Of a stretch of 64,000 nt of DNA, positions 4,899 to 63,642 are shown piece by piece (position 1 is the first letter of the stretch; each line of letters starts with the position of its first letter). Below the pieces are notes generated by a model. That model worked only from the letters and a program-made list of their open reading frames with translations. It was not told the origin of the DNA and searched no databases. Origin of the DNA: an uncultured Sphingomonas sp. (GTDB lineage: Bacteria > Pseudomonadota > Alphaproteobacteria > Sphingomonadales > Sphingomonadaceae); contig NZ_CAJYTI010000010.1 of the NCBI RefSeq assembly GCF_913777625.1, positions 175,095 to 239,094 of the forward strand, in the 5' to 3' direction. Both the position numbers and the translations under genes were made by a program.

Positions 4899-5831
4899 TC
4901 ATTTTCTTGCCGCTTGTTTTTCAGCGTCGGGCGACCCAAACAAGAACGTAAGCGCTGCGGGCAAACGCGTCGCCCATGCATCTTCGCCATGATGAGCGGT
5001 CGGATCGATGACCAACTTAACGCTGGGCGCGCTCAATGCGAGGGCAAGTCGATCGCGTAGTCGTTCAGCGCCGACGACGAGCCCGGTGTTGATGCGTGCG
5101 ATCCGTTCGCGGATGGCTGGTGGCGCACCAGGCGGTATCGCCGCCTCCTCGCCGCCCATGCCAATATAGATACGGTCGGGTAGCATGGCGGCGTCGGCCG
5201 CGTCGCGCAGCAATTGCCCATTGCCGACCTGCAAGGATGGGCTCTCGATCAGCGCCTTGCCGAATAGCTGCGGATTACTCAGCACCGTGTGCAACGTGGC
5301 TACGCCGCCATAGGAGAAGCCGCCGAGTCCAATCTCGGCTGGATCCGTTGATACCCGAAACGATGCCGCGACCAACGGCATCACGTCGCCCGCTAGGAAT
5401 GCTGCCAACCGATCGCCTTCCATCTGACCGGCTGCCGGCATGAACGGGTCGGCATAGGGGAGATACTCGTTGGCGCGACGCGCACCGGCGTTATCGATGC
5501 CAACGATGATGATCGGTGTGATCGCGCCGCTCGAGATCAGCCGAGTGGCGACTTCATCTAGCGTCCACTCATGGCCCTGGTAGCCGGTACAGGTGTCGAA
5601 GGCATTTTGCCCGTCGAGAACGTACAGCACAGGATAGCGTCGCGAACCCGTCGTGTCGTATCCGGGGGGTAGCCAAATGCGCAACGTGCGCTCACCCGGG
5701 AATACCTTGCTCTGCAGCGTGATAGTGCGAACCGTACCGACGATGCTGGAACGACACTCGGGATCGCTCGGCGCCGCAGGGGGAACCTGCGCGGGAATCG
5801 ACATGACAGCGGCGAGCAAAAAGGTCAGCAT
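4899..5831 (-). CDS. Exported alpha/beta-hydrolase esterase (IroE/Fes-like)
   Basis: IWLPPGY, YPVLYVLDGQNAF, nucleophile elbow GFSYGG, C-terminal His (HHGEDAW); hydrophobic N-terminus. Confidence 0.85.
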   Translation of the reverse strand: MLTFLLAAVMSIPAQVPPAAPSDPECRSSIVGTVRTITLQSKVFPGERTLRIWLPPGYDTTGSRRYPVLYVLDGQNAFDTCTGYQGHEWTLDEVATRLISSGAITPIIIVGIDNAGARRANEYLPYADPFMPAAGQMEGDRLAAFLAGDVMPLVAASFRVSTDPAEIGLGGFSYGGVATLHTVLSNPQLFGKALIESPSLQVGNGQLLRDAADAAMLPDRIYIGMGGEEAAIPPGAPPAIRERIARINTGLVVGAERLRDRLALALSAPSVKLVIDPTAHHGEDAWATRLPAALTFLFGSPDAEKQAARK

Positions 5832-6128
5832 CAGTCCGCGTCTCCTTGCATCAAAGCGTAGCAAGAATTGTGACCTTCATGCCTCCGCCTTGATCTCAAG
5901 CTTATCCTAAGGGACGTTTGCTTTCCACCAGATTTGGATATTTGTCGTTCCCTTTGGTCGCACCTTTGACCGCCCCCGCCAACAGCTTGTTCCGTGCGAA
6001 TTGTTTACTATATGTTCGATCGTCGTCCGGTTTGGGCAGCCGCTCTTTGATTCTGTCCGGTAACGTCGTCGTGCGCGCGAAACATCACGTCGTGCGGCTT
6101 CGATGATGCTTGAGCTGACGGTGCTCGC

Positions 6129-6271: not shown

Positions 6272-6784
6272 TCAATGGTACGATGCGGCCTCGACCGGCG
6301 TGCACAGCAGCGCGCACGGGCCTTCGCCGTCGAGCGGCAGGATGGTGGTGAGCGTCGCCAGGCCGCCGGCATGGTCGAGCAGCCAGCCCGGTTCCGCGAC
6401 GGCGGGGCGGTTGGGCGAGAAGGCGACGCCGGTGCCGTCGGTGATCACGCCCAGCCGGCGCGGCGGGCTGGGCCAGCGGCCGGCGAGATAGGTGAGGCAG
6501 GCGCTCGCCGCATCCTGCAGCGCGCCTTCGTCGGTGTCCTCGTCGCAAAAGCCCTCGGGGCTCGCGTCGATCTCGGCGACCAGGCGGAAGTCGTCGCCGC
6601 GCCACCAGATCATCCGCAGCGATCCGTCCATGTCCTGCTGCAGACCCAAAAAAAGCCGACCGCCGGCCGGGAGCAGCGGTTGCGCACAGCGCACCATTTC
6701 CTCGGCCAGTTCGGTCAGCTTGAAATTCGGCCGCGGCATCATCTGGGGTATGCCGCGGCCGTTGGTCTGGGAGTCTCGGGACAT
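6272..6784 (-). CDS. Hypothetical protein downstream of the sigma factor
   Basis: 170-aa ORF with coding-like composition and its own CTATAAT motif 30 nt upstream; no family recognised. Confidence 0.7.
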   Translation of the reverse strand: MSRDSQTNGRGIPQMMPRPNFKLTELAEEMVRCAQPLLPAGGRLFLGLQQDMDGSLRMIWWRGDDFRLVAEIDASPEGFCDEDTDEGALQDAASACLTYLAGRWPSPPRRLGVITDGTGVAFSPNRPAVAEPGWLLDHAGGLATLTTILPLDGEGPCALLCTPVEAASYH

Positions 6785-6814: not shown

Positions 6815-6823
6815 ATTATAGAA
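6815..6823 (-). promoter_or_regulatory. TYCTATAA -10-like motif
   Basis: Minus-strand TTCTATAAT upstream of the ORF starting at 6784. Confidence 0.55.
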
Positions 6824-6844: not shown

Positions 6845-7897
6845 TCAGTGCAGCGCGGCGCTGCTCTGCACGGCGGCAGCGACGGCCACGACCTCGACGG
6901 TATCGCGGTTCGCCTCGGCCGCCACCACCGCCTCGACGCTCGCCGGATGGATCGCGACGACGCTGGAGAGCAGGTTGTGGGGCTGGCTGGCGTCCGGCAG
7001 GATCGGGGTGACGCTGCGGGCCGGGGCCGGCTGGCGGCGCTTGGCGGTGGCGGGCTCGCCATATTCGGCCATCACCGAGAAGCGGGGGTCGGCGGCGGCG
7101 ATCTCGGCGATCACCTTGGCGGCGCGCTTGGTGATCTGGCGGACGCGCTCCTTGGTCACGCCGGTCTCGAGCGACAGATCGTCGAGCGTGGCGGTCTGGA
7201 ACACGCGGCGGGCGACGATCTCGCGGTCGCGCTCCAGCTTGGCTTCGAGCTTCTCCAATTCGGTCGGATCGATGCCGTGGGTGGCGGTGCGGAGGCGCGG
7301 GCCTTCGCGGCGCAGCGCGGCTTCTTCCCGCTTCGGACGGGGGCGGCGGCGGAGCTGCTCGATGCCCACCTTGCGGAGATGGTCGACATAGGCCTCGATC
7401 AGCGAGGAGATCGCGCCGTCGGCCAGGTAATCCGACGCGGCGCTCTCGGTACGCTCCAGGGCGTCCTCGTCCTCGATCATCGCCTCGGGCGACATCTCGT
7501 CGCCATCCGCCGAGGTGACCATCGCGCTGAGCGAAACGGTGGTGGCTTCGACCTTCTTCGCGGAGGGGCGCTGATCGGTCATCAGGCGGAAGCGCAGGCT
7601 CTGCAGTTCGCCGCGGATCTGCCAGTTCACGAAGGTGGTGAACTGCGCCTTTTCCGGCTCATAGGCCTGGATGGCACGGTGCACGGCGATGGCGCAGCAC
7701 TGCTCGGCATCGTCCCAGTGCGCGGTCAGGCCGTACTGGCGGATGAAGTGGCGGATGCGCGGTGCGATGAGCTTGAGAATGCGAGCGAAGGCCCGATCGA
7801 CTTCGGCGCGCTGACGGGCAGTCTGCTTGCTGTCCTTCGGCGAGTTCTCGATGACGGTTTGGACTGCGGCCTCGAGAGCGATCGTGATCTTCGACAT
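6845..7897 (-). CDS. Sigma70-family (group 3-like) RNA polymerase sigma factor, atypical
   Basis: Region 2 AIQAYEPEKAQFTTFVNWQIRGELQS, region 3.2-like VSLSAMV...MIED, region 4.2 HTH TLDDLSLETGVTKERVRQITKRA. Confidence 0.8.
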   Translation of the reverse strand: MSKITIALEAAVQTVIENSPKDSKQTARQRAEVDRAFARILKLIAPRIRHFIRQYGLTAHWDDAEQCCAIAVHRAIQAYEPEKAQFTTFVNWQIRGELQSLRFRLMTDQRPSAKKVEATTVSLSAMVTSADGDEMSPEAMIEDEDALERTESAASDYLADGAISSLIEAYVDHLRKVGIEQLRRRPRPKREEAALRREGPRLRTATHGIDPTELEKLEAKLERDREIVARRVFQTATLDDLSLETGVTKERVRQITKRAAKVIAEIAAADPRFSVMAEYGEPATAKRRQPAPARSVTPILPDASQPHNLLSSVVAIHPASVEAVVAAEANRDTVEVVAVAAAVQSSAALH

Positions 7898-7949
7898 TCG
7901 TATTCCCCTGGTTCAGCGCCGGTCCGATCGTTCCGGCGCCGTCGACAGG

Positions 7950-8091
7950 GGCAGATTTCGCCTGAAACCTTTAAAGGAGTGCTAATCGCGGGCTTAGGTA
8001 GTTTTCCGCAAAGGACCCCCGACCTTTATAGCAGTTGCGATTCGCAACGTGGGCCAAGTGCCTGAAAAAATGATGGTTAATCGCCGTTCAG
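7950..8091 (-). promoter_or_regulatory. Sigma-factor promoter region: ftr-like box (7950-7962), TGCTATAAA (8025-8033), CtrA-like half-match (8076-8091)
   Basis: GGCAGATTTCGCC; minus-strand CTATAAA; minus-strand CTGA-N7-TTAAC. Confidence 0.45.
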
Positions 8092-8133: not shown

Positions 8134-9168
8134 TTACGAGGAAAATTTTTCCGGTTGGATGTGCCGGTCGATGAATTGCAGTAACCATTCCCGATGGGCA
8201 CGGGTGGCGTCGCCGGCACTGGCGATGCGCTGTTCTGCAGCCGATCCGCCGATCTGGGCGGCGAGCAACTGGCGGGCACGGCCCGCGTCAATCCCGCCGG
8301 CGAGAAATTTTCGCGCATCGCCCAGCCCCAAATGGTGGCTGAGATAGGCGGCCTTGGCCAAGGTTTCCGAGTCGGCGCGCACGTTGAGCCCGGATGATTC
8401 GAGCTTATGCAAATTGTTGCGGGCCATATCTGCGACGGTGAGAATCGACGCCTGCGGATCGTAGCGCAACGCCAGCAACTCGCTGCGCCGGCTGGGATCG
8501 ACCTTGCCGTTCTCCTTCAGCCAGCCGCGCGCCTTGGCGACGTCGTTCAGCCAGGTGCCGCTCTGTTCGGCGAGTCCCTGCCAGGTGCCGCTGAGGAACT
8601 GGCCCAGCCCCGCCGCGCTCGAGCGCGGGTTGCGGGAGAGCGGGTTCCAGCTGCCGTCATGGCCCTTGCCGGCTTCGGCGTTGACGATTGCGGCGAGCGC
8701 ATTGGCAGGCACGCCGCTCCGTGCCTCGGCCGCCGCCAGCGCATCGGCGTAGCGGCTGTTGGCGCCGAGCGCGAGCGCACCGGAGGTGCCGCCGGCGGCG
8801 ACCCCGGACGCAGGGGCGGAGGCCATGGCGGCCGGCGGCGCCGCGATTGCCCGGGCGCGCTCGGCCGTCAACGGCGCCTTGGGCGCGACGGCTGCGTCCT
8901 GGGCGTCGTCGTGACATGAACAGGCGCATTGGCAGTTGCAGCGGCCCTTGGACGAACGCGGCGCCTGGGTGCCGAGCAGTTCGAGCAACGAGTCCATCTG
9001 CATGTCCGAACCCGGGCCGAGCGGCGAGCGGGTCTTGCCCGCTTCGCGGTCGCCGTCGCCGAGCGCGGCGCGCCAAAGCCGGGTCGAGAGCTCGGACTGC
9101 GCCTGGGCGTAGATCACGTTGGCGCGCTGGGCCGGCGTGAGCGCGGCGAGGTCGGTACGGTGGATCAT
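8134..9168 (-). CDS. Lytic transglycosylase (SLT-like), probable flagellar peptidoglycan hydrolase, with a Cys-rich linker
   Basis: AAIVNAEAG (catalytic Glu), SSAAGLGQFLSGTW, YLSHHLG; ATGA overlap with the fliJ-like gene. Confidence 0.8.
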   Translation of the reverse strand: MIHRTDLAALTPAQRANVIYAQAQSELSTRLWRAALGDGDREAGKTRSPLGPGSDMQMDSLLELLGTQAPRSSKGRCNCQCACSCHDDAQDAAVAPKAPLTAERARAIAAPPAAMASAPASGVAAGGTSGALALGANSRYADALAAAEARSGVPANALAAIVNAEAGKGHDGSWNPLSRNPRSSAAGLGQFLSGTWQGLAEQSGTWLNDVAKARGWLKENGKVDPSRRSELLALRYDPQASILTVADMARNNLHKLESSGLNVRADSETLAKAAYLSHHLGLGDARKFLAGGIDAGRARQLLAAQIGGSAAEQRIASAGDATRAHREWLLQFIDRHIQPEKFSS

Positions 9169-11403: not shown

Positions 11404-11519
11404 CTTATAGCGACGTTTGCAGCGCGCGGTGCGAATACCCGGCAAATTTTGCCGCCTCCCGTGCGCGGACAGGCAATTTCGCCCTATCGATTTGGGCCGG
11501 CCCGCCACCCCTCTACAAT
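11404..11519. promoter_or_regulatory. Divergent flbT/flgE control region with two ftr-like palindromes and two -10-like motifs
   Basis: Minus CTATAAG 11404-11410; GGCAAATTTTGCC 11441-11453; GGCAATTTCGCCC 11472-11484; plus CTACAAT 11513-11519. Confidence 0.6.
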
Positions 11520-16031: not shown

Positions 16032-17810
16032 ATGCTTCAAAAGGCACGACGGTTGGGCCGGGTCTTGGCCTTGGCGCTTGTCGTGGATGCGGGCGCGGCC
16101 GAGGCCGCCTGCAAGGTCAGTCGCATGGCCGAACTGCCGGTCACCATGCAGGGCATGCGAGCGATCGTCGACACGACCATCAACGGCAAGCCCGCGCCGT
16201 TCATCCTCGATAGCGGCGCCTTCTTCAGCACCGTTCCCCCGGCGGTCGCCAAGGCGTTCGGCCTGCCGGAAGAGCCGGCGCCTCCCGGCTTCCACCTGAA
16301 CGGCATTGGCGGGAGCGCCAGTGCAGGCGTGGTCCGCGTGGACCATTTCGGCCTCGCGGGCGTCGACCTGCGCAACGTCCAGTTCGTCCGCGGCGGCACC
16401 GATATCGGCCAGACCGGGCTGCTGGGACAGAACATCCTCGGCATCGCGGACGTGGAATATGACCTGCCGGGCGGCGCGGTGCGGCTGTTCCGGTCCGAGG
16501 GCTGTGCCAAGGCCTCTTTGGCCTATTGGGCGGTCGGCAAGCCCTATTTCGAGATCGCGATCGAACCCAAGGAGGTCGCCCAAAACCACACGGCCGGCAC
16601 GCTCGAGTTGAACGATGCCAAGATCCGGGCCTTTTTCGACACCGGCGCCAGCGGGACGGTGGTGTCGTTGCGGGCGGCGGCGCGCGCCGGCGTGAAGCCG
16701 GGCGATCCCGGCGTGGAGAAGTCGGGCTGGGAAACCGGCCTCGGTCACCATGTGACCCAGGGCTGGATCGGCACCTTCAAGCTGTTGAAGATCGGCAGTG
16801 AAGAACTGCACAATGTGCGGTTGCGGATCGCCGACCTGGGGGCGCTGGACGTCGATATGCTGCTCGGCGCCGACTATTTCGTGTCGCACCGGCTCTATGT
16901 GTCCAACGCGCTGCACCGCATCTTCTTCACCTATACCGGTGGCAAGCTGTTCCAGCAGGTTGCCCGGGTCGACGCGACCAGCGGCATCGAGGCGCAGGCA
17001 GCGGATACGACCGCTCCGCTCGATGCCGAAGGCTATGCCCGGCGCGGCGCAATGTTCCAGACGCAGCGGGACATGCCGCACGCCATCGAGGCATTCACCC
17101 AGGCGATCGCGCTGGCGCCGCGCGACCCGCGCTTCCCGCGCCAGCGCGCAATGGCCTATCTGGCCGAGGGACGCGGGGTGCTGGCGATCGACGATCTGAA
17201 CACCACCCTGGAGCTCGAACCCGGCGACCATCAGGCGCGCCTGACCCGCGCCCAGCTTCGCGTCCGGTTCGGCAACGCAGCGGGTGCGGTCGCCGATCTC
17301 GACCGCCTCAACGCCGAACTGCCGCGCGAGGACAATGAGCGGCTGCGCATCGGGCAGCTCTACGCCTCGGCCGACAAGTTCGACGCCGCGATCGCGCAGT
17401 TTGACCTGTGGCTGGCCGCACACCGCGAGGATGCGGCGCGGAGCACGGCCCAGAATGACCGCTGCTGGGCGCGGGCGCTCGCCAATATCGATCTGGAAAA
17501 GGCGCACAGCGATTGCGACGCGGCCGTTCGGGCGGTGCCGAACAACCCGTCCTTCCTCGACAGCAGGGCGATGGTGGCGCTGCGCCAGGGCCGGTTCGCG
17601 GCGGCGATCAACGACTTCACCGCCGCGCTGGCGATTGATCCCAAGCTCGCCTGGTCGCTCTACTGTCGCGGGCTGGCCGAGCAGCATCTCGGGCAGGCCG
17701 AGGCAGCCGCGCGCGATATTGCCGCTGCCGTGAAGCTCCAGCCCCGCGTGGCCGATCGCGCGAAGCGCTATGGTCTGGTCGAGGGGGCGAAGGCCGCTGC
17801 TGTCAACTGA
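16032..17810 (+). CDS. Exported aspartyl protease with two retropepsin-like domains plus C-terminal TPR repeats
   Basis: FILDSGA and AFFDTGA catalytic motifs, GLLG/MLLG psi-loops, TPR-like helices, signal peptide. Confidence 0.85.
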   Translation: MLQKARRLGRVLALALVVDAGAAEAACKVSRMAELPVTMQGMRAIVDTTINGKPAPFILDSGAFFSTVPPAVAKAFGLPEEPAPPGFHLNGIGGSASAGVVRVDHFGLAGVDLRNVQFVRGGTDIGQTGLLGQNILGIADVEYDLPGGAVRLFRSEGCAKASLAYWAVGKPYFEIAIEPKEVAQNHTAGTLELNDAKIRAFFDTGASGTVVSLRAAARAGVKPGDPGVEKSGWETGLGHHVTQGWIGTFKLLKIGSEELHNVRLRIADLGALDVDMLLGADYFVSHRLYVSNALHRIFFTYTGGKLFQQVARVDATSGIEAQAADTTAPLDAEGYARRGAMFQTQRDMPHAIEAFTQAIALAPRDPRFPRQRAMAYLAEGRGVLAIDDLNTTLELEPGDHQARLTRAQLRVRFGNAAGAVADLDRLNAELPREDNERLRIGQLYASADKFDAAIAQFDLWLAAHREDAARSTAQNDRCWARALANIDLEKAHSDCDAAVRAVPNNPSFLDSRAMVALRQGRFAAAINDFTAALAIDPKLAWSLYCRGLAEQHLGQAEAAARDIAAAVKLQPRVADRAKRYGLVEGAKAAAVN

Positions 17811-18414
17811 GCGTGGCGGCTAGAACCAGGGCGCGCTCGAACACGGCGGTGAGCATCGGTTCGGTCAGCCGGCCGATATTCTGGTTGTAGCGCGAGACAT
17901 GGTAGCTATCGAGTACCACCTGGCCCTTGGGCAGATGGTGCTCCGCCCCGTGGGCAAAGCGGGCCTTGGGCAACTTTCCGCCGAGCGCCTTCACCGCCGA
18001 CTGGTGCGCGATCTCGCCCAGCGCGACGACGATCGGCGCGCGGAGCTGCCCCGCCAGGAACGGCCGGCAGGCGTGGATCTCGGCCGGCGTCGGTCGATTT
18101 TCCGGCGGGAGGCAGCGCACCGCGTTGAGAATCTGCACACCGCGCGGCGCTTCCCCCTCGGCCAGGCCCAGCTTTTCCAGCACCGCGAACAACAAGGTGC
18201 CCGACTCGTCGCCGGTAAAGGCACGACCGGTGCGGTTCGCGCCCAGGCGTCCGGGCGCGAGGCCGACGATCGCGATCCTGGCGTCCGGGGTACCCAGCGC
18301 GGGGACGGGTGCGTTCCACCAGTCGGGCTGCTCGGCGCGCAACTGGCTGCGCAGCGCGACGAGGCGCGGGCAGAGCGGGCAATCGCGATCGGGTTCGGGG
18401 CTTGGCGTGGACAT
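17803..18414 (-). CDS. Uracil-DNA glycosylase (family 4/5)
   Basis: CPLCPRL, GLAPGRLGANRTGRAFTGD, NAVRCLPPENRP, SYHVSRYN. Confidence 0.9.
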   Translation of the reverse strand: MSTPSPEPDRDCPLCPRLVALRSQLRAEQPDWWNAPVPALGTPDARIAIVGLAPGRLGANRTGRAFTGDESGTLLFAVLEKLGLAEGEAPRGVQILNAVRCLPPENRPTPAEIHACRPFLAGQLRAPIVVALGEIAHQSAVKALGGKLPKARFAHGAEHHLPKGQVVLDSYHVSRYNQNIGRLTEPMLTAVFERALVLAATLS

Positions 18415-18437
18415 GGCATCGCGATAGGCGCGGCAGC

Positions 18438-18914
18438 GTGCCGGTCACAAGCTACATCCTCGCCCTGGGCTCCAATCGCCGCGGCCGCCACGGCAGCCCC
18501 CGCCGCGAGGTGGAGGCGGCGCTGGCGGCGATCGGCGGCGTCCGCGCGGCGTCGCGTATCCACGAGACGGCACCGATCGGCCCCTCGATCCGGCGGTTCG
18601 CCAACGCGGTGGCGTGGATCGACAGCGACGAGACGCCCGCGGCGCTGCTTCGCCGCCTGAAGGGGATCGAGCGGGCCTTCGGACGGCGGCGGGGCCAGCG
18701 CTGGGGCGCCCGGGTGATTGATCTCGACATCGTGCTGTGGTCCGAGGGGGCCTGGTGGACGCGCGACCTGATCGTGCCCCACCCGCAGTATCGCGCCCGC
18801 CGCTTCGTCCTGGCGCCGCTGGCAGAGATTGCCCCGCGCTGGCGCGACCCGGTGAGCGGCCGCGCGACGCTTCCGTTGCTGCACGCGGTTGACCGGCGGC
18901 GCCCCTGCGCCTAG
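18438..18914 (+). CDS. folK: 2-amino-4-hydroxy-6-hydroxymethyldihydropteridine diphosphokinase
   Basis: YILALGSN, ETAPIG, FANAV, WGARVIDLDI, VPHP; GTG start at 18438. Confidence 0.92.
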   Translation: MPVTSYILALGSNRRGRHGSPRREVEAALAAIGGVRAASRIHETAPIGPSIRRFANAVAWIDSDETPAALLRRLKGIERAFGRRRGQRWGARVIDLDIVLWSEGAWWTRDLIVPHPQYRARRFVLAPLAEIAPRWRDPVSGRATLPLLHAVDRRRPCA

Positions 18915-18927
18915 GGGGACGCACTGT

Positions 18928-19003
18928 GGGTCCGTAGCTCAGTCGGTAGAGCAAGCGACTTTTAATCGAGAGGTCCCGGGTTCGAATCCCGGCGGACCCA
19001 CCA
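18928..19003 (+). tRNA. tRNA-Lys(UUU)
   Basis: 76 nt, perfect 7-bp acceptor stem, D-arm, TTCGAAT T-loop, anticodon TTT, encoded CCA; two purine mismatches in the anticodon stem. Confidence 0.95.
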
Positions 19004-19220
19004 CCGAAAGCCCTCGAAACATAGATTTTCTGACGCTCGATGCCTCTCTGCGCGGGGGCATTCCAACACGCGTTTTGACGTTGGGCGCAGGCCGCGACGA
19101 TTGGCGGGACCGCGCTGCCGACCTCCGCATCAATAGTGCGGGACGCGGCACAAAGGAGTTGAGACTATATATCCTACGGGATATCGCCGCTTGTTTCCTC
19201 GTTGAAAGAAGCGGATTTTC

Positions 19221-21389
19221 ATGTCGCGTCGCGTGTTTCTCGCCACTACCGCCCTTGTCTTGCTGCCGCTGTCCGCCTTGGCCGATCCTCAGTCGGACGG
19301 CCCTGGGGACAACGCGCCCGCGCAGGCCAAGGATGCTGCGCCGGCCCAGCAGGGCGCGACGATCATCGTCTCCGCCCCCTATCGCCAGAGCGAGACCGAC
19401 GTGCTGTCCGGCACCTCGGTCGTTACCGGCGCGGAACTGACCCGCAGCCTGCGCCCGACGATCGGCGAGACGCTGGCGCACCAGCCTGGCGTATCGGCGA
19501 GCTCGTTCGGGCCCAGCGCCTCGCGGCCGATCCTGCGCGGCTTCCAGGGCGAGCGCGTGCGCGTGCTGACCGACGGCATCGGCTCGATCGACGTCTCGAA
19601 TACCTCGGCCGACCATGCGGTGATCATCGATCCGCTGCTTGCCGAGCGGGTGGAGGTGTTGCGGGGCCCTTCGGCCCTGCTGTTCGGATCGTCGGCGATG
19701 GGCGGCGTGGTCAACGTGATCGACAGCCGGATACCGCGTGCGGTGCCGGAAAAGGGGTACCGGCTGAGCAGCATCGCGACCTATGGGTCGGCGGCCAATG
19801 AGCGTTCGGTCGGCGGGGCGGGCGACGTTGCGGTGGGCAGCCACCTCGTGCTGCACGCCGACGGCTCCTATTCCAAGTCGGACGATCTCAAGATCGGTGG
19901 CTATGCCCTGACCCCGACCAAGCGGCGCGAGGCGCTGGCCAGTGCAGGCCTGCCGGCCGATCCCTCCGACCCCGATCCGATCGACTTCGCCGCCAATGCC
20001 GCGGTCAGGAACCGCCTGCCGAACACCGCCGCCACGACGTGGACGGCGGGCGCCGGCGCGGCGATCGTGACCGACAATGGCACGCTGGGCGTGGCCTATA
20101 GCCATTATGACAGCCTGTACGGGGTACCGATCCGCTTCGCCACCGAGCCGGGCGAAGGCCAGGAATCGCCGCGGCTGAGCGTGGTCCAGAACCGGCTCGA
20201 TCTGCGCGCCGAGGCCGATACCGGCGGCAGCGTCCTCCAGAAGGTGCGGCTACGCGCCGGCTATGCCGCCTATCGCCATTTCGAGCTGGCGCCCGACGGC
20301 AGCACCGGCACCGCCTTCTACAACAAAGGGCTGGAGGGCCGGCTGGAGCTGGTCCAGGCCGATCACGGTGCCTGGAAGGGCGCGAGCGGCGTGCAGGTGT
20401 TCGCGCGGGACTTCGACGTGAAGGGCGACGAGGCGTTCCTGCCCAAGAACAAGACCGAGCAGGTGGGACTGTTCACGCTCCAGCAGCTCGATCTCGGCGC
20501 GATCAAGGCTGAGGCGGGCCTGCGCTACGAGTTCACCGATCTTTCGGCCGATCCGGTGCAGGGCGATCTGCGCTTCTTCGGCGGGAGCCGCCATTTCGAG
20601 GCGCTCTCGGGTTCGGTCGGCGCTTCCTATGGCCTCAGCCACGACGTGCGGATCGGCCTCAACCTCTCGCACACCGAGCGTGCACCCTCGGCGGAGGAGC
20701 TGTTCGCCAACGGCGCCCATGCCGGCACCGAGGCCTATGAGCTGGGCAGCCCCGATTTTCGGCTCGAAAAGAGCTGGGGGCTGGAGGCGACGCTGCACGC
20801 GCATGGCGACGGCTACAGCTTCGACGCTTCGGCCTATTACACCTGGTTCTCCAACTATATCAGCGATGCCGAGACCAATTCGGCGGTCTGTGCGGCGGCC
20901 GCGGCGCCGAGCGGGCGGACGGTGGAACTGCCCTGCTTCCAGTTCACCCAGCGCGACGCGCGCTATTACGGGTTCGAGGCCGAGGGATCGGTGCGACTGG
21001 CGCAGGCGGGCGGGTACACGATCAACCTCGACGCGCTGGGCGATTATGTCCACGCCAATATCGTCGACCAGGGCCCGGCGCCGCGCATCCCGGCGATGCG
21101 CGTGCTCGGCGGCATCGAGGCGCAGTCCGATGCGGTGACCGGCCGCCTGGAGGCGGAGCATGTCTTCGCGCAGGATCGCATCGCGGCGTTCGAGACGCGC
21201 ACCGCGCCCTATACCATGGTCAACGCGACGCTGAGCCTGAAGCCCTTCCCGACCATGCCGGGCACCACGCTCACGCTATCCGCCAACAACCTGTTCGACG
21301 TCGATGCCCGGCGGGCGAGCAGTTACCTCAAGGACTATGCGCCGCTCGCGGGCCGCGACCTGCGGGCGACGCTGCGCTTCAGCCTCTAG
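19221..21389 (+). CDS. TonB-dependent receptor, ZnuD-like plug
   Basis: SRPILRGFQGERV, SADHAVIIDP, VEVLRGPSALLFGSSAMGGVVNVID, NNLFD; beta-barrel C-terminus. Confidence 0.92.
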   Translation: MSRRVFLATTALVLLPLSALADPQSDGPGDNAPAQAKDAAPAQQGATIIVSAPYRQSETDVLSGTSVVTGAELTRSLRPTIGETLAHQPGVSASSFGPSASRPILRGFQGERVRVLTDGIGSIDVSNTSADHAVIIDPLLAERVEVLRGPSALLFGSSAMGGVVNVIDSRIPRAVPEKGYRLSSIATYGSAANERSVGGAGDVAVGSHLVLHADGSYSKSDDLKIGGYALTPTKRREALASAGLPADPSDPDPIDFAANAAVRNRLPNTAATTWTAGAGAAIVTDNGTLGVAYSHYDSLYGVPIRFATEPGEGQESPRLSVVQNRLDLRAEADTGGSVLQKVRLRAGYAAYRHFELAPDGSTGTAFYNKGLEGRLELVQADHGAWKGASGVQVFARDFDVKGDEAFLPKNKTEQVGLFTLQQLDLGAIKAEAGLRYEFTDLSADPVQGDLRFFGGSRHFEALSGSVGASYGLSHDVRIGLNLSHTERAPSAEELFANGAHAGTEAYELGSPDFRLEKSWGLEATLHAHGDGYSFDASAYYTWFSNYISDAETNSAVCAAAAAPSGRTVELPCFQFTQRDARYYGFEAEGSVRLAQAGGYTINLDALGDYVHANIVDQGPAPRIPAMRVLGGIEAQSDAVTGRLEAEHVFAQDRIAAFETRTAPYTMVNATLSLKPFPTMPGTTLTLSANNLFDVDARRASSYLKDYAPLAGRDLRATLRFSL

Positions 21390-21418
21390 CCTGAATGTCA
21401 GGGCAACGAGCTGCACCG

Positions 21419-21451
21419 TTAAACAAGCCTTGATTCTCCTCCTGCTACGAT
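21419..21451 (+). promoter_or_regulatory. CtrA-like box followed by a -10-like motif upstream of the diguanylate cyclase
   Basis: TTAA-ACAAGCC-TTGA (21419-21433), CTACGAT (21445-21451). Confidence 0.4.
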
Positions 21452-21473
21452 CTGCGTTCACCAGCGTAGATGG

Positions 21474-22634
21474 GTGGTAGAGATGGCGGAGCGTACATTT
21501 CGTCCGAGATTTGGTCCCTTGCGCTGGCTTGCGGACGTTGGACGGGATCTCGATGATGTGGTTCGCTGCCAGTTCGAGAAATCGTTTTTCTCGTCGACCA
21601 TTCCACTGGTGGCGGGGGGGCTGAACTCGGCCCTGATCGCGGGGCTGGCCTGGGTCCGGATCGGCGCGCCGCTGCTGATCGCGCTGGCCCTGTTCGATCT
21701 GGGCACGATCGGGCTGCGGCTTCTCGCGATCCACAATGCGCCGCGCCGCGCGGGGTTTGCAGACCTGCTGTTTGCCAGCAGCCTGGCATGGTGCGTGTCG
21801 CAGGCACTTGCGATGACCATCGTCCTAGCGTCGAAGGACATGCTGCTCATCCTCATCTTCGCTGCCTCGACGGTGGCGACGGCGGCCGGAATCGCGTCGC
21901 GCAATTTCGGCGCTCCCCGCTTCGCGCTGGCGCAGATCCTGATCCTCGATCTGACCTTCAAGGTGAACATGGTGCTGCTCGACCGGGCGCTTGGCATCGT
22001 GGCGGTAATGCAGGGCAGCTTCTTCCTGTGCATCAACATGGGGTTGATCGCGGGGCTGCGACGGCTGACCATCAAGGCGCTGGAGGGCGAGGCTGCCAGC
22101 CGCGCGCTCGCCGCGCGCGACCCGCTTACCGGGCTGGCCAATCGCCGCGGGCTGGAGGACGCCTATGCCCGGCGGGCGGGGCAAGTCTCGGCGTTCGCCA
22201 TCGATCTCGACGGCTTCAAGCAAGTCAACGACCGGCACGGACACGCGGCGGGCGACGTGATCCTTGCCGGGGTCGCTGCACGCCTGCGGGAGTTCTGCGT
22301 CGGCGCGCTGTCGATCAGCCGTATGGGGGGCGACGAGTTCGTCGTGCTGGTCGAGCAGCTGCGGAGCGAGGAACGCGAAGGGCTGGCGGCGCGGCTCGTG
22401 GCGATATTGTCCGCGCCCTACCGGCTGGACGAGGCACAGCGTGCCCTGGTCGGTGCCAGTGTGGGCGTCGCCACCGCCGAGGCGGCTCCGCTGGAGGTGT
22501 TGCTGCGGGCGGCCGACCGCGCGCTCTATGCGGCGAAGTCCGCAGGCAAGGGCCGGTACATCCTCGCCGAATCCCTGCCCGCGGAGTGCCCGGCGTCGAC
22601 GGCGGATGCGGGTGCCACCCGCACCGCCGCCTGA
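21474..22634 (+). CDS. Membrane-bound diguanylate cyclase
   Basis: About 5 TM segments, DPLTGLANRR, IDLDGFKQVNDRHGHAAGD, RMGGDEF; no RxxD I-site. Confidence 0.92.
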   Translation: MVEMAERTFRPRFGPLRWLADVGRDLDDVVRCQFEKSFFSSTIPLVAGGLNSALIAGLAWVRIGAPLLIALALFDLGTIGLRLLAIHNAPRRAGFADLLFASSLAWCVSQALAMTIVLASKDMLLILIFAASTVATAAGIASRNFGAPRFALAQILILDLTFKVNMVLLDRALGIVAVMQGSFFLCINMGLIAGLRRLTIKALEGEAASRALAARDPLTGLANRRGLEDAYARRAGQVSAFAIDLDGFKQVNDRHGHAAGDVILAGVAARLREFCVGALSISRMGGDEFVVLVEQLRSEEREGLAARLVAILSAPYRLDEAQRALVGASVGVATAEAAPLEVLLRAADRALYAAKSAGKGRYILAESLPAECPASTADAGATRTAA

Positions 22635-24701: not shown

Positions 24702-24710
24702 TTTATAGGA
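24702..24710 (-). promoter_or_regulatory. TYCTATAA -10-like motif
   Basis: Minus-strand TCCTATAAA 28 nt upstream of ATG 24673. Confidence 0.5.
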
Positions 24711-27841: not shown

Positions 27842-27897
27842 AGCTTCCCTGGACCTTCCGAAATATCGGCCGCGACGTCCGCACGTCCGATTTCCCT

Positions 27898-27930
27898 CTA
27901 TTATAGAACCGTCACCCGGCAATTTCTGCC
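27898..27930. promoter_or_regulatory. Divergent fliL/flgF control region: palindromic CTATTATAG plus ftr-like box
   Basis: CTATTATAG 27898-27906; GGCAATTTCTGCC 27918-27930. Confidence 0.6.
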
Positions 27931-30757: not shown

Positions 30758-30841
30758 TTTACCGAAACTTTACCTTAATCATCCGGTAACCATCAAAATT
30801 TTCAGGAGAAATTTTGATGGAGGCGATTTTCTTCCCACAAT
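30758..30841 (+). promoter_or_regulatory. Flagellin upstream region: tandem CtrA-like boxes, 12-bp inverted repeat, -10-like motif
   Basis: TTTA-N7-TTTA 30758-30772; TTAA-N7-GTAAC 30775-30790; CCATCAAAATTT-N7-AAATTTTGATGG 30790-30820; CCACAAT 30835-30841. Confidence 0.5.
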
Positions 30842-30931: not shown

Positions 30932-31786
30932 ATGGCTTTTTCCGTTAACACCAACGTCGGCGCGATGGCGGCTCTGCAGAGCCTGAGCCAGACGCAGAAG
31001 GACCTGTCGACCACCCAGAGCCGCATCAACACCGGTCTCGCGGTTTCGTCGACCAAGGATGACTCGGCGACCTACACGATCGCCCAGGGCCTTCGCAGCG
31101 ATCTGGGCGGCCTCAAGTCGGTTTCTTCGTCGCTCAGCCGCGCCAAGAGCGTGACCGACGTCGCGGTTGCCGGTGCCGAGCAGATCTCCGACATCGTCAA
31201 CCAGATGAAGGCGAAGGCCTATCAGGCTGCTGACGCCGGCCAGACCACGGACAGCCGTACCCAGCTGAACAACGACTTCACCGCGCTGCGTGACCAGATC
31301 ACCACGATCGTGAACTCGGCCAACTTCAACGGCACCAACCTGCTGAAGAGCGGCGGCGGCACCGTGACGGCCCTGCAGTCGCTGCAGGACTCGAACACCG
31401 CGACCACGGCCTGGAACCCGGACTCGCTCTCGGTTGCCAACCAGGCGCTGGACCTCGGCGGCTCGAACATCACGATCGCCTCGACCGCGACGATCAGCAC
31501 CCAGGCTTCGGCCCAGGCGATGATCGACACGATCACCACCACGCAGAGCAACCTGACGGCGGTTCTGGGCAAGCTCGGCGCGGCTTCGCGCAAGATCGAC
31601 GCCCAGCAGGCGTTTACCAGCAAGCTCTCGGACGTGATCGACAGCGGCATCGGCAACCTCGTCGACGCCGATCTGGCGAAGGAATCGGCGAAGCTGCAGG
31701 CGCTGCAGGTCAAGCAGCAGCTCGGTGTGCAGGCTCTGTCGATCGCCAACCAGGCGCCGCAGACCATCACGTCGCTGTTCCGCTAA
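30932..31786 (+). CDS. fliC: Flagellin (short, Caulobacter Flj-like)
   Basis: SVNTNVGAMAALQSL, RINTGLAVSSTKDD, FNGTNLL, LVDADLAKESAKLQALQVKQQLG...LFR. Confidence 0.97.
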   Translation: MAFSVNTNVGAMAALQSLSQTQKDLSTTQSRINTGLAVSSTKDDSATYTIAQGLRSDLGGLKSVSSSLSRAKSVTDVAVAGAEQISDIVNQMKAKAYQAADAGQTTDSRTQLNNDFTALRDQITTIVNSANFNGTNLLKSGGGTVTALQSLQDSNTATTAWNPDSLSVANQALDLGGSNITIASTATISTQASAQAMIDTITTTQSNLTAVLGKLGAASRKIDAQQAFTSKLSDVIDSGIGNLVDADLAKESAKLQALQVKQQLGVQALSIANQAPQTITSLFR

Positions 31787-35031: not shown

Positions 35032-35040
35032 ATTATAGAG
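35032..35040 (-). promoter_or_regulatory. TYCTATAA -10-like motif
   Basis: Minus-strand CTCTATAAT 44 nt upstream of the fliK ATG. Confidence 0.55.
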
Positions 35041-37172: not shown

Positions 37173-38507
37173 TCAAGGGGCGGGCGAGACGGCGATGCCC
37201 GCCTCGATGAAGGTGCGCAGCTTGTTGCGCATCGTGCGCACCGAGATGCCGAGGATGTTCGATGCCGAGGTGCGGTTGCCGTGGCAGCGCTCGAGCGTCT
37301 GGAGGATCAGCTCGCGCTCCACCTCTTCCACCGTGCGGCCGACCAGGCTGTTGATGTCGAGCGCGTTCGCATCGGCATTGAGGTCGGCAAGCGGGGTGCC
37401 GTCGGCACGCACCAGGTCGCCCGGCGTGATCGCGGCGCCGCGGCCGAGCAGGATGGCGCGATGCACCGTCTCGTCCAGTTCGCGGATGTTGCCCGGCCAG
37501 CTGTAGCGCTGGAGCAGCGCCAGTGCCTCGTCGGTGAAGGCGCGCTCGGGCACGCCGTCGACTTCGGCATGGCGCTTGGCGAAATAGCGGGCGAGGGCGA
37601 GGATGTCCTCGCCGCGGGCGCGGAGCGGCGGCACCTCGACGCGGACCAGCCCCAGCCGGACCAGCAGATCGGCGCGGAACGAACCGCTGTCGACCAGCGC
37701 GTCGAGGTTCAGGCTCGATGTCGCGATCAGCCGCGCATGGAACGGGATCAGCTCGTTGCCCGCCAGGCGGCGGAACTGCTGCTTCTGGAGCACGTCGTGC
37801 AGTTTGGCCTGGAGCGCGGGCGACAGCATGCCCACTTCGCGGATCAGCACGGTGCCATGGCCGGCCTTTTCGAGCCGACCGATGCGGCGGGCGACCGCGC
37901 CCGGAAAGGCGCCGGCCTCATGGCCGAACAGCTCGGATTCGAGCACGTCGGGGGCAACCCCGGCGCATTCGGCGACCAGCATCGGCTGCGGACGGCCCGA
38001 GGCATCGTGCACGGCACGCGCCATCATTTCCTTGCCGCTGCCCTTCTCGCCGGTGATCAGCACCGGCGCGCTGCTGGGGGCGACGCCCGCGGCAAGCGAG
38101 AGCGCGCGGGCGAGGGCGGGGTGAACGCCGATCCAGGCCGGGGCCTTGCGCTCGACGACCGAGGCAATGGCCGCCGCGATCAGTTCGCGTTGCGGCGGAA
38201 GCGGTACGTAATCGCGGGCGCCGGCGCGGATCGCCGCAACCGCGCGCTCGGCCGGGGCATCGATGCCGCAGGCCAGCACCGCGATGGTGAAGCGTTCGCT
38301 GCGGATGCTCGCCATGAAGCCGGCGATGTCCGCCTCGACGTCGATCATCACCAGATCTGCGCCGCCCTGGCGCAGCTGGATCAGGCCGTCGGCCGGCGTG
38401 TCGGCCATCGCCACTTCGGCGCCGGCGCTGCGCGCCAGCTCGGCGGCGAGGCGGAACTCGCTGCCCGGCGCACCGATCAGGAGCATGCGTATGGAGCTGG
38501 CCATCAA
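37173..38507 (-). CDS. flbD: FlbD-like enhancer-binding protein (REC-AAA+-HTH) with degenerate sigma54-activation motifs
   Basis: FlbD-like receiver (VLACGIDA...YVPLPP), Walker A GEKGSGKE, GAFPGA instead of GAFTGA, Walker B VLIRE, intact HTH GNRTSASNILGISVRTMRNKL; fliN-flbD-flhA synteny. Confidence 0.88.
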   Translation of the reverse strand: MMASSIRMLLIGAPGSEFRLAAELARSAGAEVAMADTPADGLIQLRQGGADLVMIDVEADIAGFMASIRSERFTIAVLACGIDAPAERAVAAIRAGARDYVPLPPQRELIAAAIASVVERKAPAWIGVHPALARALSLAAGVAPSSAPVLITGEKGSGKEMMARAVHDASGRPQPMLVAECAGVAPDVLESELFGHEAGAFPGAVARRIGRLEKAGHGTVLIREVGMLSPALQAKLHDVLQKQQFRRLAGNELIPFHARLIATSSLNLDALVDSGSFRADLLVRLGLVRVEVPPLRARGEDILALARYFAKRHAEVDGVPERAFTDEALALLQRYSWPGNIRELDETVHRAILLGRGAAITPGDLVRADGTPLADLNADANALDINSLVGRTVEEVERELILQTLERCHGNRTSASNILGISVRTMRNKLRTFIEAGIAVSPAP

Positions 38508-40538: not shown

Positions 40539-40590
40539 TTTATAGAAAGGGGGCGGAGCGGCAGTTTCTGCCGGGTGGGAATTTTTTGCC
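40539..40590 (-). promoter_or_regulatory. fliF promoter region: TTCTATAAA plus two ftr-like boxes
   Basis: Minus CTATAAA 40539-40545; GGCAGTTTCTGCC 40560-40572; GGAATTTTTTGCC 40578-40590. Confidence 0.6.
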
Positions 40591-40683
40591 TAGCGGCTGC
40601 GCGGCCTTGTTCAGGTGGTAGCCATCTGAACCAATCCCAGAGAAAGTCGTTTGCGCGCCAGCGCCAAGGCCAAGGGGGACGGA

Positions 40684-46167: not shown

Positions 46168-46213
46168 CCCTGCAGAAAATGGTCCGCGCGCACCCGCAAG
46201 GCCGCGCTCTCCT

Positions 46214-46270
46214 CTATTATAGGATTGTTAGGGGAAGGGACGGATCGGATCATGGTTAATTATTCTTCAA
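46214..46270. promoter_or_regulatory. Divergent fliG/flaY control region: palindromic CTATTATAG plus CtrA-like box
   Basis: CTATTATAG 46214-46222; minus TTGA-N7-TTAAC 46255-46270. Confidence 0.55.
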
Positions 46271-52441: not shown

Positions 52442-52450
52442 CTTATAGGA
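52442..52450 (-). promoter_or_regulatory. TYCTATAA -10-like motif
   Basis: Minus-strand TCCTATAAG 38 nt upstream of the flgI ATG. Confidence 0.55.
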
Positions 52451-54766: not shown

Positions 54767-54775
54767 ATTATAGGA
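54767..54775 (-). promoter_or_regulatory. TYCTATAA -10-like motif
   Basis: Minus-strand TCCTATAAT 44 nt upstream of the PilZ gene start. Confidence 0.55.
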
Positions 54776-63633: not shown

Positions 63634-63642
63634 ATTATAGGA
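63634..63642 (-). promoter_or_regulatory. TYCTATAA -10-like motif
   Basis: Minus-strand TCCTATAAT 35 nt upstream of the motA ATG. Confidence 0.55.

Follow-up and report, generated by a model that had tools for sequence, protein, structure and literature searches.

Flagellar gene control is a textbook transcriptional hierarchy, and the known schemes work through FliA (sigma-28), through sigma54 with enhancer-binding proteins, or through CtrA. In the Caulobacter hierarchy, CtrA and sigma-73 serve the class II genes, sigma54 and FlbD serve classes III and IV, and FlbT/FlaF belong to the same scheme. For Sphingomonas sp. WG, whose flagellar genes share the order described below, FlbD was taken as a sigma54 activator and the Caulobacter scheme was assumed; the account notes the absence of fliA, calls the cascade unclear, and neither mentions in its text nor lists in its supplement the sigma gene that is our subject (PMC8921679). 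Our literature search found no paper on this sigma family or on a sigma54-independent FlbD in sphingomonads. The gene, on the minus strand at 6845-7897, lies in a 64,000-nucleotide (nt) stretch of the genome of an uncultured Sphingomonas sp. (contig NZ_CAJYTI010000010.1), called the window here and the source of all positions given without a contig name. We propose, with a probability of roughly 0.6, that it encodes a flagellum- and chemotaxis-specific alternative sigma factor of a new lineage, which would stand under CtrA and read TYCTATAAT promoters that have no -35 element. Such a factor would probably take over the roles that CtrA-dependent and sigma54-dependent promoters play elsewhere. 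Comparative sequence evidence ties the gene to a motility-specific box and to what appears to be a sigma54-free version of the alpha-type flagellar hierarchy, and the link between sigma factor and box is itself of this comparative kind.

The sigma protein and its lineage

The reading frame is open from an ATG start and encodes 350 amino acids (aa), with a third-position G+C content (GC3) of 0.89, as in real genes of this 68% G+C DNA. Its product passes the Pfam cut-off for Sigma70_r4 (PF04545; 28.9 bits at residues 222-261, cut-off 24.1). By approximate residues, sigma2 spans 27-107 and sigma4 211-278; between them lie a disordered stretch (109-140), a sigma3-like helical part (144-197) and a basic linker (183-203), and the protein ends in a disordered tail (279-350). 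The AlphaFold model (mean predicted local distance difference test score, pLDDT, 70.8) is helical in sigma2, over residues 3-107, and again in the middle, over residues 144-197. In fold searches with this model, the best matches in the PDB and in a viral structure library were all sigma factors, over about 330 columns and with probability 1.0; the viral ones were generic phage sigma factors only and not closer to the protein than cellular ones. The family profile found region 4 of RpoS as its top PDB match (E 1.7e-7), and a PHROG sigma-factor family covers residues 56-265 (E 3.6e-10).

The protein was aligned with the RpoD and RpoH of the same genome and with sphingomonad FliA proteins. Region 4.2, GVTKERVRQITKRA, pairs with RpoD SVTRERIRQIEAKA and RpoH GVSRERVRQIEVRA and not with FliA LGTARISQIKKSA, as had been anticipated in a sequence-only reading of the window made beforehand. 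That reading had called region 2 RpoH/RpoD-like as well, and here the alignment corrects it: by alignment, sigma2 is divergent, with its aromatic FTTFVNWQIR core kept, and not specifically RpoH/RpoD-like. Against RpoD it retains AIAVHRAI..Y.P and FTTFVNWQIR, and regions 2.2-2.4 are alignable to RpoD DAEQCCAIAVHRAIQAYEPEKA-QFTTFVNWQIRG, with the core-binding helix and the aromatic melting residues F86/F89/W92 kept. The other features named in advance are present. The RpoH box is missing, with RPSAKKVEATTVSL at the place where RpoH shows QKKLFFNLRRMK; the basic insert before region 4 is the stretch RRRPRPKR...GPRLR at residues 183-203, of which RRPRPK is nearly invariant in the family; and the tail of about 75 aa corresponds to the last 75 residues, which are variable and predicted to be disordered. 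In a family alignment of 14 sequences, the N-terminal 130 residues are almost invariant, though the species are only about 60% identical overall, and region 4.2 is invariant.

Curated models do not place the protein in any class. The best NCBIfam scores are 43 bits for PRK06759 (cut-off 133) and 35 bits for TIGR02937 (cut-off 42.9), and no NCBIfam sigma model reaches its cut-off; the RpoH models give 26-30 bits against cut-offs of 241-323 (TIGR02392, 28.2 vs 323). The FliA model TIGR02479 (cut-off 189.6 bits) is not among the protein's NCBIfam matches, and a whole-genome scan with this model at E<=10, by which FliA is absent from the genome, returned eight places with the sigma gene not among them. 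The phylogeny that the sequence-only reading had proposed was run as a maximum-likelihood tree of the sigma family, its remote relatives, the 13 other sigma-70-family proteins of the genome and eight sphingomonad FliA proteins. The sigma family and its remote relatives form a clade of their own (support 88/90), apart both from RpoD, RpoH and FliA, which come together (95/94), and from the extracytoplasmic function (ECF) sigma factors (94/94). The eight FliA proteins form a clade of their own (100/100), grouped with RpoD and RpoH, and the sigma family lies on the opposite side. Since the tree separates the family from both of these groups, we regard the protein, on phylogenetic grounds, as a sigma-70-family member of its own lineage that clusters with neither FliA nor RpoH, in keeping with its earlier description as an atypical sigma factor. 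The lineage appears undescribed so far. Membership in the ECF group (group 4) was considered and rejected on the TIGR02937 score, the length of 350 aa against about 200, the helical middle domain and the position outside the ECF clade.

Promoter boxes, FlbD and the flagellar genes

The window holds a Caulobacter-type (alpha-type) flagellar cluster, with flbT-fliI-fliJ-orf344-sigma-orf170 on the minus strand and flgE-flgK-flgL on the plus strand. Beyond a non-flagellar insert follow fliL-fliM, flgF-G-A-H, flagellin, fliF-fliN-flbD-flhA-fliK-flgD, fliG-fliH, flgB, flgI and motB, and a run of adjacent minus-strand chemotaxis-like open reading frames (ORFs) with motA first. Of 80 species loci, 61 retain the order FlgK-FlgE / FlbT-FliI-FliJ-orf344-sigma(-orf170), including loci with identity as low as 59%. 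Two stretches, 16032-22634 and 4899-5864, hold genes of other kinds: the cluster is interrupted by non-flagellar genes for an aspartyl-protease/TPR protein, a UDG-family protein, a TonB receptor and a GGDEF protein, and an esterase gene between orf170 and tmk is absent in a relative, Sphingomonas sp. HT-1 (L009). The genome has rpoN.

The word TYCTATAA occurs eight times in the window, against 0.1 expected, always on the minus strand and each time 30-50 nt before a start (orf170, orf72-orf607, fliL, fliF, fliG, flgI, orf213 and motA). Three of the boxes read TTCTATAA: one at 6816-6823, 31 nt before the orf170 start and within the 60-nt gap that follows the sigma stop; one at 27901-27908 before fliL-fliM, with CTATTAT on the opposite strand towards flgF and an ftr-like (FlbD-site-like) palindrome, GGCAGAAATTGCC, 9 nt upstream at 27918-27930; and one at 40540-40547 before fliF-fliN-flbD-flhA, accompanied by ftr-like boxes at 40560-40572 and 40577-40591. 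The remaining five read TCCTATAA and precede orf72-orf607 (24703-24710), fliG-fliH (46217-46224, with TTAACCAT 27 nt upstream), flgI (52443-52450), orf213 (54768-54775) and motA at the head of the chemotaxis-like run (63635-63642). Near-matches, also on the minus strand, precede fliK-flgD (CTATAA in CTCTATAAT, 35033-35038), flbT (CTATAA in CGCTATAAG, 11405-11410, with the ftr-like palindrome GGCAAAATTTGCC at 11441-11453) and the sigma gene itself. At the fliL/flgF (27896-27908) and fliG/flaY (46211-46224) junctions the box is held in a near-palindrome, CCTCTATTATAGRA, which is CTATAAT in one direction and CTATTAT in the opposite direction; a single element might therefore serve both divergent operons.

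Of the 30 copies of TYCTATAA across the genome, 10 belong to the cluster or adjoin it, and further copies stand before two chemoreceptor genes, a FliN-like gene and two paralogous genes with ftr-like boxes. About 17 of the 30 copies are linked to motility, and about 13 stand before unrelated genes. The two paralogous genes, of about 400 aa and off-cluster (C5:78874, plus strand; C26:11011, minus strand), may be motility-related, for example in flagellin modification. Although the sequence on either side diverges, 48 of 63 species keep the orf170 box. Its consensus extends to C-n-T-Y-CTATAAT-g, in which T at -15 and Y at -14 are conserved; an A follows 7 nt behind the hexamer, and a -35 is missing. 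Novosphingobium rhizovicinum, whose sigma protein is 64% identical, has eleven TCCTATAA boxes at matching places (before motA, flgI, fliG, fliF, fliK, fliL, orf72/607, flgE, a FliN-like gene and others), and the flgE/flbT gap of distant family members also holds a box. A search for a -35 word shared by 26 box promoters gave nothing above shuffled controls, and a good -35 was of no help in splitting RpoD-type from box promoters, since only 4 of the 321 CTATAA sites of the genome had one. Some boxes have an ftr-like palindrome (GGCA-N5-TGCC) 9-30 nt upstream. Such palindromes occur in only 6-7 of the 26 box promoters and CtrA sites in few, so the box promoters have no common activator site.

FlbD (37173-38507, minus strand) is altered in the window: GAFTGA has become GAFPGA and the Walker B DE has become RE, with the helix-turn-helix (HTH) part kept. 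The same holds, with GAFPGA, GAFAGA or GAFVTA and Walker B RE, for 28 sigma-carrying genomes, whereas 11 FlbT-positive genomes that have no sigma gene, one of them in the same family, keep GAFTGA and DE intact. Picking genomes solely by a degenerate FlbD recovered the sigma gene in seven of seven. As the changes are conserved across the 28 genomes, this FlbD looks like a sigma54-independent variant that is being maintained, not like a gene in decay.

Promoters differ along the same line: a near-uniform TYCTATAA(T/G) box with no -35 lies 30-50 nt ahead of almost all motility operons of the sigma-carrying genomes, and of these genomes only. Eight sigma-less, FlbT-positive genomes showed no TYCTATAA before their flagellar operons, and in whole genomes the ratio of TYCTATAA to its reversed-word control is 0.36-0.64 in three sigma-carrying genomes vs 0.09-0.22 in 11 without sigma. 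Upstream of fliF, the six sigma-less relatives inspected have an ftr box, then a CtrA-type box (TTAAC(C), in the clearest cases TTAACC-N7-TTAC) and a GCTANAWC-like -10 discerned by eye, as in Caulobacter; the fliF promoter of the window keeps the ftr boxes and has TTTCTATAAA in place of the CtrA box. At the place orthologous to the fliK box, one sigma-less genome (G067) has a sigma54 promoter. The window itself holds no excess of sigma54 promoters (5 found vs 4.7 expected). A near-consensus sigma54 promoter-like word, TGGCATAGACGTTGC, lies at 47342-47356 (minus strand) in the flaY-like region with no obvious downstream gene and may be due to chance. The flagellin gene (30932-31786) is preceded by a full CtrA-type box, TTAATCATCCGGTAACCAT, at 30775-30793 on the plus strand, of the form TTAA-N7-TAACCAT and conserved in three genomes. 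With this box and no TYCTATAA upstream, flagellin seems to share the sigma gene's level in the cascade. The sigma gene, TYCTATAA boxes and an FlbD without GAFTGA and the Walker B aspartate thus occur together, and this three-way co-occurrence, with the strict synteny and the upstream sites described next, bears out the earlier suggestion that the sigma gene is wired into the flagellar hierarchy.

Upstream region, neighbours and the wider family

The region upstream of the sigma gene was said to carry a TYCTATAA motif, an ftr-like box and a CtrA-like half site. The latter two are there, and the motif stands in part: the -10-like box, some 130 nt ahead of the sigma start, reads TGCTATAA (8026-8033, minus strand) and therefore matches CTATAA but not the strict TYCTATAA. 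It can equally be read as a TGn-type extended -10. Several relatives have a full TYCTATAAT box ahead of the sigma start, and its distance varies between them. The CtrA-type half site, TTAACCAT (8073-8080, minus strand), lies 39 nt upstream of the TGCTATAA box, and this geometry recurs, with the full TTAA-N7-TAACCAT, at the flagellin gene in the three genomes. The ftr-like box, GGCGAAATCTGCC, is in the sigma leader (7950-7962, minus strand), where GCCAAA-N6-CC is partly conserved in a 27-species alignment.

The leader also contains a GC-rich hairpin (7905-7952, minus strand) in whose outer stem an anti-Shine-Dalgarno sequence, CCCCTG (7946-7951), can pair with the Shine-Dalgarno sequence CAGGGG (7905-7910). 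Single-sequence folds give a hairpin in all 27 species, with a different sequence each time and a mean z of -1.4. The Shine-Dalgarno region is paired in the folds of about half of these species, and many have an upstream CCCCTG-like stretch able to pair with it; RNAalifold gave no consensus structure for the leader alignment. Because of the mean z and the empty RNAalifold result, the hairpin gives a tentative hint of translational control. Another conserved element, at 7968-7999 on the minus strand, is degenerate in the window (CCTAAG...TCCTTTAAAGG), where TCCTTTAAAGG holds the 10-bp palindrome CCTTTAAAGG. In the relatives L030, L034, L068, L081 and L084 its counterpart is ATAGGA-N14-TTA(A/G)(A/G)G with fixed spacing, at 75-110 nt from the sigma start on its upstream side. 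Its role may be that of an operator or of a promoter of an unusual kind.

Immediately downstream of the sigma gene comes the conserved orf170 (6272-6784, minus strand), found behind it in 57 of 80 loci searched. No family could be assigned to its product, which is confidently predicted to adopt an alpha/beta fold (pLDDT 86, predicted template modelling score 0.81) and has the conserved motif GRWP..PP..GVITDGxGVAF; searches of the PDB by fold (at E<0.07) and by sequence profile were both empty. We consider it a candidate partner or anti-sigma factor of the sigma protein. The FlgM family did not turn up in general scans of the ORFs, which included no genome-wide search aimed at FlgM. On the other side of the sigma gene, orf344 (8134-9168, minus strand) always lies between fliJ and the sigma gene. 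Its product is lytic-transglycosylase-like, matching phiKZ gp144 in its C-terminal part (E 0.002) and a PHROG transglycosylase (E 3.5e-12) with no Pfam or NCBIfam match, and is probably the rod-penetration enzyme of this flagellum.

Homologues of the sigma protein number in the hundreds, in Sphingomonas, Stakelama, Sphingosinicella, Novosphingobium rhizovicinum and one metagenome-assembled genome of the Erythrobacteraceae, and usually carry the database name 'sigma factor-like helix-turn-helix DNA-binding protein'. An order-wide survey found a homologue in 7 of 151 genomes and FlbT in 90 of them; FliA occurs in 36 of 61 genera of Sphingomonadaceae. The wider family (loci L091, L092, L095-L098, L197 and L198) includes orphan paralogues, as one or two extra copies among housekeeping genes in some species that also hold the cluster copy, remote homologues of about 250 aa without the tail and outside flagellar clusters, and longer relatives of 520-580 aa beside ParB-like and helicase genes in a mobile-element-like setting. 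Neither the housekeeping nor the mobile-element-like surroundings of these paralogues and remote homologues gave a functional clue.

Proposed mechanism, rival explanations and known systems

In the mechanism that we propose, CtrA-type boxes would let CtrA, probably with RpoD, activate both the sigma gene and flagellin. The new sigma factor would bring core RNA polymerase to the TYCTATAAT promoters of fliF, fliG, fliL, flgI, fliK, flgE and motA, and further proposed targets are the adjacent chemotaxis-like genes, the chemoreceptor genes and orf170. Its own gene may be a target too, given the full box upstream of the gene in several relatives. FlbD, freed from sigma54, would modulate a subset of promoters via ftr-like boxes 9-30 nt upstream, and the leader hairpin over the ribosome-binding site may gate sigma translation. 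The protein would fill the job of FliA and, in terms of the Caulobacter scheme, replace the class II promoters with their CtrA box as well as the sigma54-dependent promoters of class III. A more sweeping version, which we hold only tentatively and at somewhat under even odds, is that the sigma factor captured the whole flagellar and chemotaxis regulon, with the CtrA-box and sigma54 classes displaced, FlbD made a sigma54-independent modulator, and sigma synthesis gated by CtrA, the ftr-like site and the leader hairpin. The interpretation given to the gene by the sequence-only reading is largely supported.

Several observations weigh against a flagellar sigma factor of this kind. Remote homologues and orphan paralogues lie outside flagellar clusters; the Pfam domain Sigma70_r2 (PF04542) scores 19.7 bits at residues 45-99 against a cut-off of 24, and the NCBIfam sigma models fail; flagellin, a classic target of a flagellar sigma factor, has no box; and sigma4 has invariant, RpoD-like DNA-contact residues, yet the 26 box promoters have no common -35 word. 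The co-occurrence may reflect a single evolutionary event and not many independent ones, because all sigma-carrying clusters may descend from one ancestral cluster. A TATAAT core with C at -13 would also suit the alphaproteobacterial RpoD, whose -10 is CTATAT in Sinorhizobium and GCTANAWC in Caulobacter, and RpoD could therefore read the boxes. On that account RpoD would use TYCTATAAT as a strong -10 without a -35, aided by CtrA, FlbD or other activators, and the sigma-like protein would have a small or different regulon, such as orf170 and its own gene, or a conditional motility function. The ftr-like boxes and a few TTAACCAT sites near some box promoters fit this account, as do the roughly 13 genomic copies before non-motility genes, the boxless flagellin and a region 4.2 that predicts the -35 recognition for which the box promoters offer nothing. 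It is the strongest of the alternatives. We nevertheless consider it unlikely, as the box excess is confined to sigma-carrying genomes, sigma-less relatives with the same cluster type are boxless and, where inspected, use CtrA-type or sigma54 promoters, a plain -10 does not account for the conserved T at -15 and Y at -14, and activator sites are as scarce as counted above.

The protein might also have ceased to be a sigma factor and act as a sigma-derived DNA-binding regulator, or as a competitor for RNA polymerase that tunes flagellar expression. Region 4 is the sole domain over a curated threshold and every subfamily model fails, the linker is strongly basic and unusual, the tail is long and disordered, a conserved palindromic element lies in the gene's own leader, and the NCBI name quoted above points the same way. 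This explanation fits poorly with sigma2 as the best-conserved part of the protein, since a plain regulator would have no use for sigma2; its core-binding and melting motifs are kept, and the whole-length fold matches are sigma factors, so we judge it improbable. An ordinary, quickly evolving FliA or RpoH orthologue would be in keeping with the position in a flagellar cluster, the label 'sigma-32' that homologues carry in some JGI records and the resemblance of region 4.2 to that of RpoH. To this we give next to no credence: the FliA model is silent at the locus even at E<=10, the RpoH models stay far below their cut-offs, the RpoH box is missing, the genuine RpoH of the genome is elsewhere (C10:420987), and the tree splits the family from both, so that hidden Markov model (HMM) scores, tree and missing box rule such an orthologue out.

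If a dedicated flagellar sigma factor is indeed what the gene encodes, a whole regulon appears to have been switched in promoter type and sigma factor with its structural genes kept. The old wiring persists in close relatives, which offers a natural before/after pair for studies of how regulatory networks are rewired. The working model of motility control would be corrected for the sphingan-producing Sphingomonas, in which motility is linked to exopolysaccharide yield, and the compact pair of promoter and sigma factor may act orthogonally to the housekeeping machinery.

Among known systems, the group 1-3 factors RpoD, RpoS and RpoH resemble the new protein in their three-domain layout and in region 4.2, where KERVRQ stands against RERIRQ in RpoD, and the -10 proposed for it is TATAAT-like with C at -13, the base that sigma-S prefers at this position. 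It differs from them in scoring far under the curated cut-offs, in having neither region 1.1 nor an RpoH box, in its separate clade and in proposed promoters without a -35. FliA/sigma-28 (FliA-WhiG-SigD, TIGR02479) is likewise a sigma-70-family alternative factor encoded among flagellar genes, and drives motility and chemotaxis operons from one dedicated promoter type, as we propose for the new factor. The IRG motif of region 2.4 is common to both, and the final ATAA of the box recalls the sigma-28 -10 element, GCCGATAA. Unlike FliA, the new protein has no match to the FliA HMM, belongs to a separate clade, has an RpoD/RpoH-like region 4.2 and, at 350 aa, includes a basic linker and a tail. 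The motility promoters of the window are not of the TAAA-N15-GCCGATAA type, being TYCTATAA(T/G) with no shared -35 word, and the proposed targets include the early fliF, fliG and fliL and not flagellin.

The Caulobacter hierarchy has the same cluster type and gene set, with FlbT, FlbD and fliF-fliN-flbD-flhA together; ftr-like boxes are kept, and CtrA-type boxes remain at some genes. The locus departs from it in having TYCTATAAT boxes where sigma-less relatives have the CtrA box of fliF and the sigma54 promoter of fliK, in an FlbD without GAFTGA and the Walker B aspartate, and in the extra sigma gene. A last parallel concerns FlbD and not the sigma protein. Some relatives of the bacterial enhancer-binding proteins without GAFTGA, such as Rhodobacter capsulatus NtrC, work with sigma-70-type holoenzymes independently of sigma54, and the FlbD of the window resembles them in keeping its AAA+ and HTH parts without GAFTGA.

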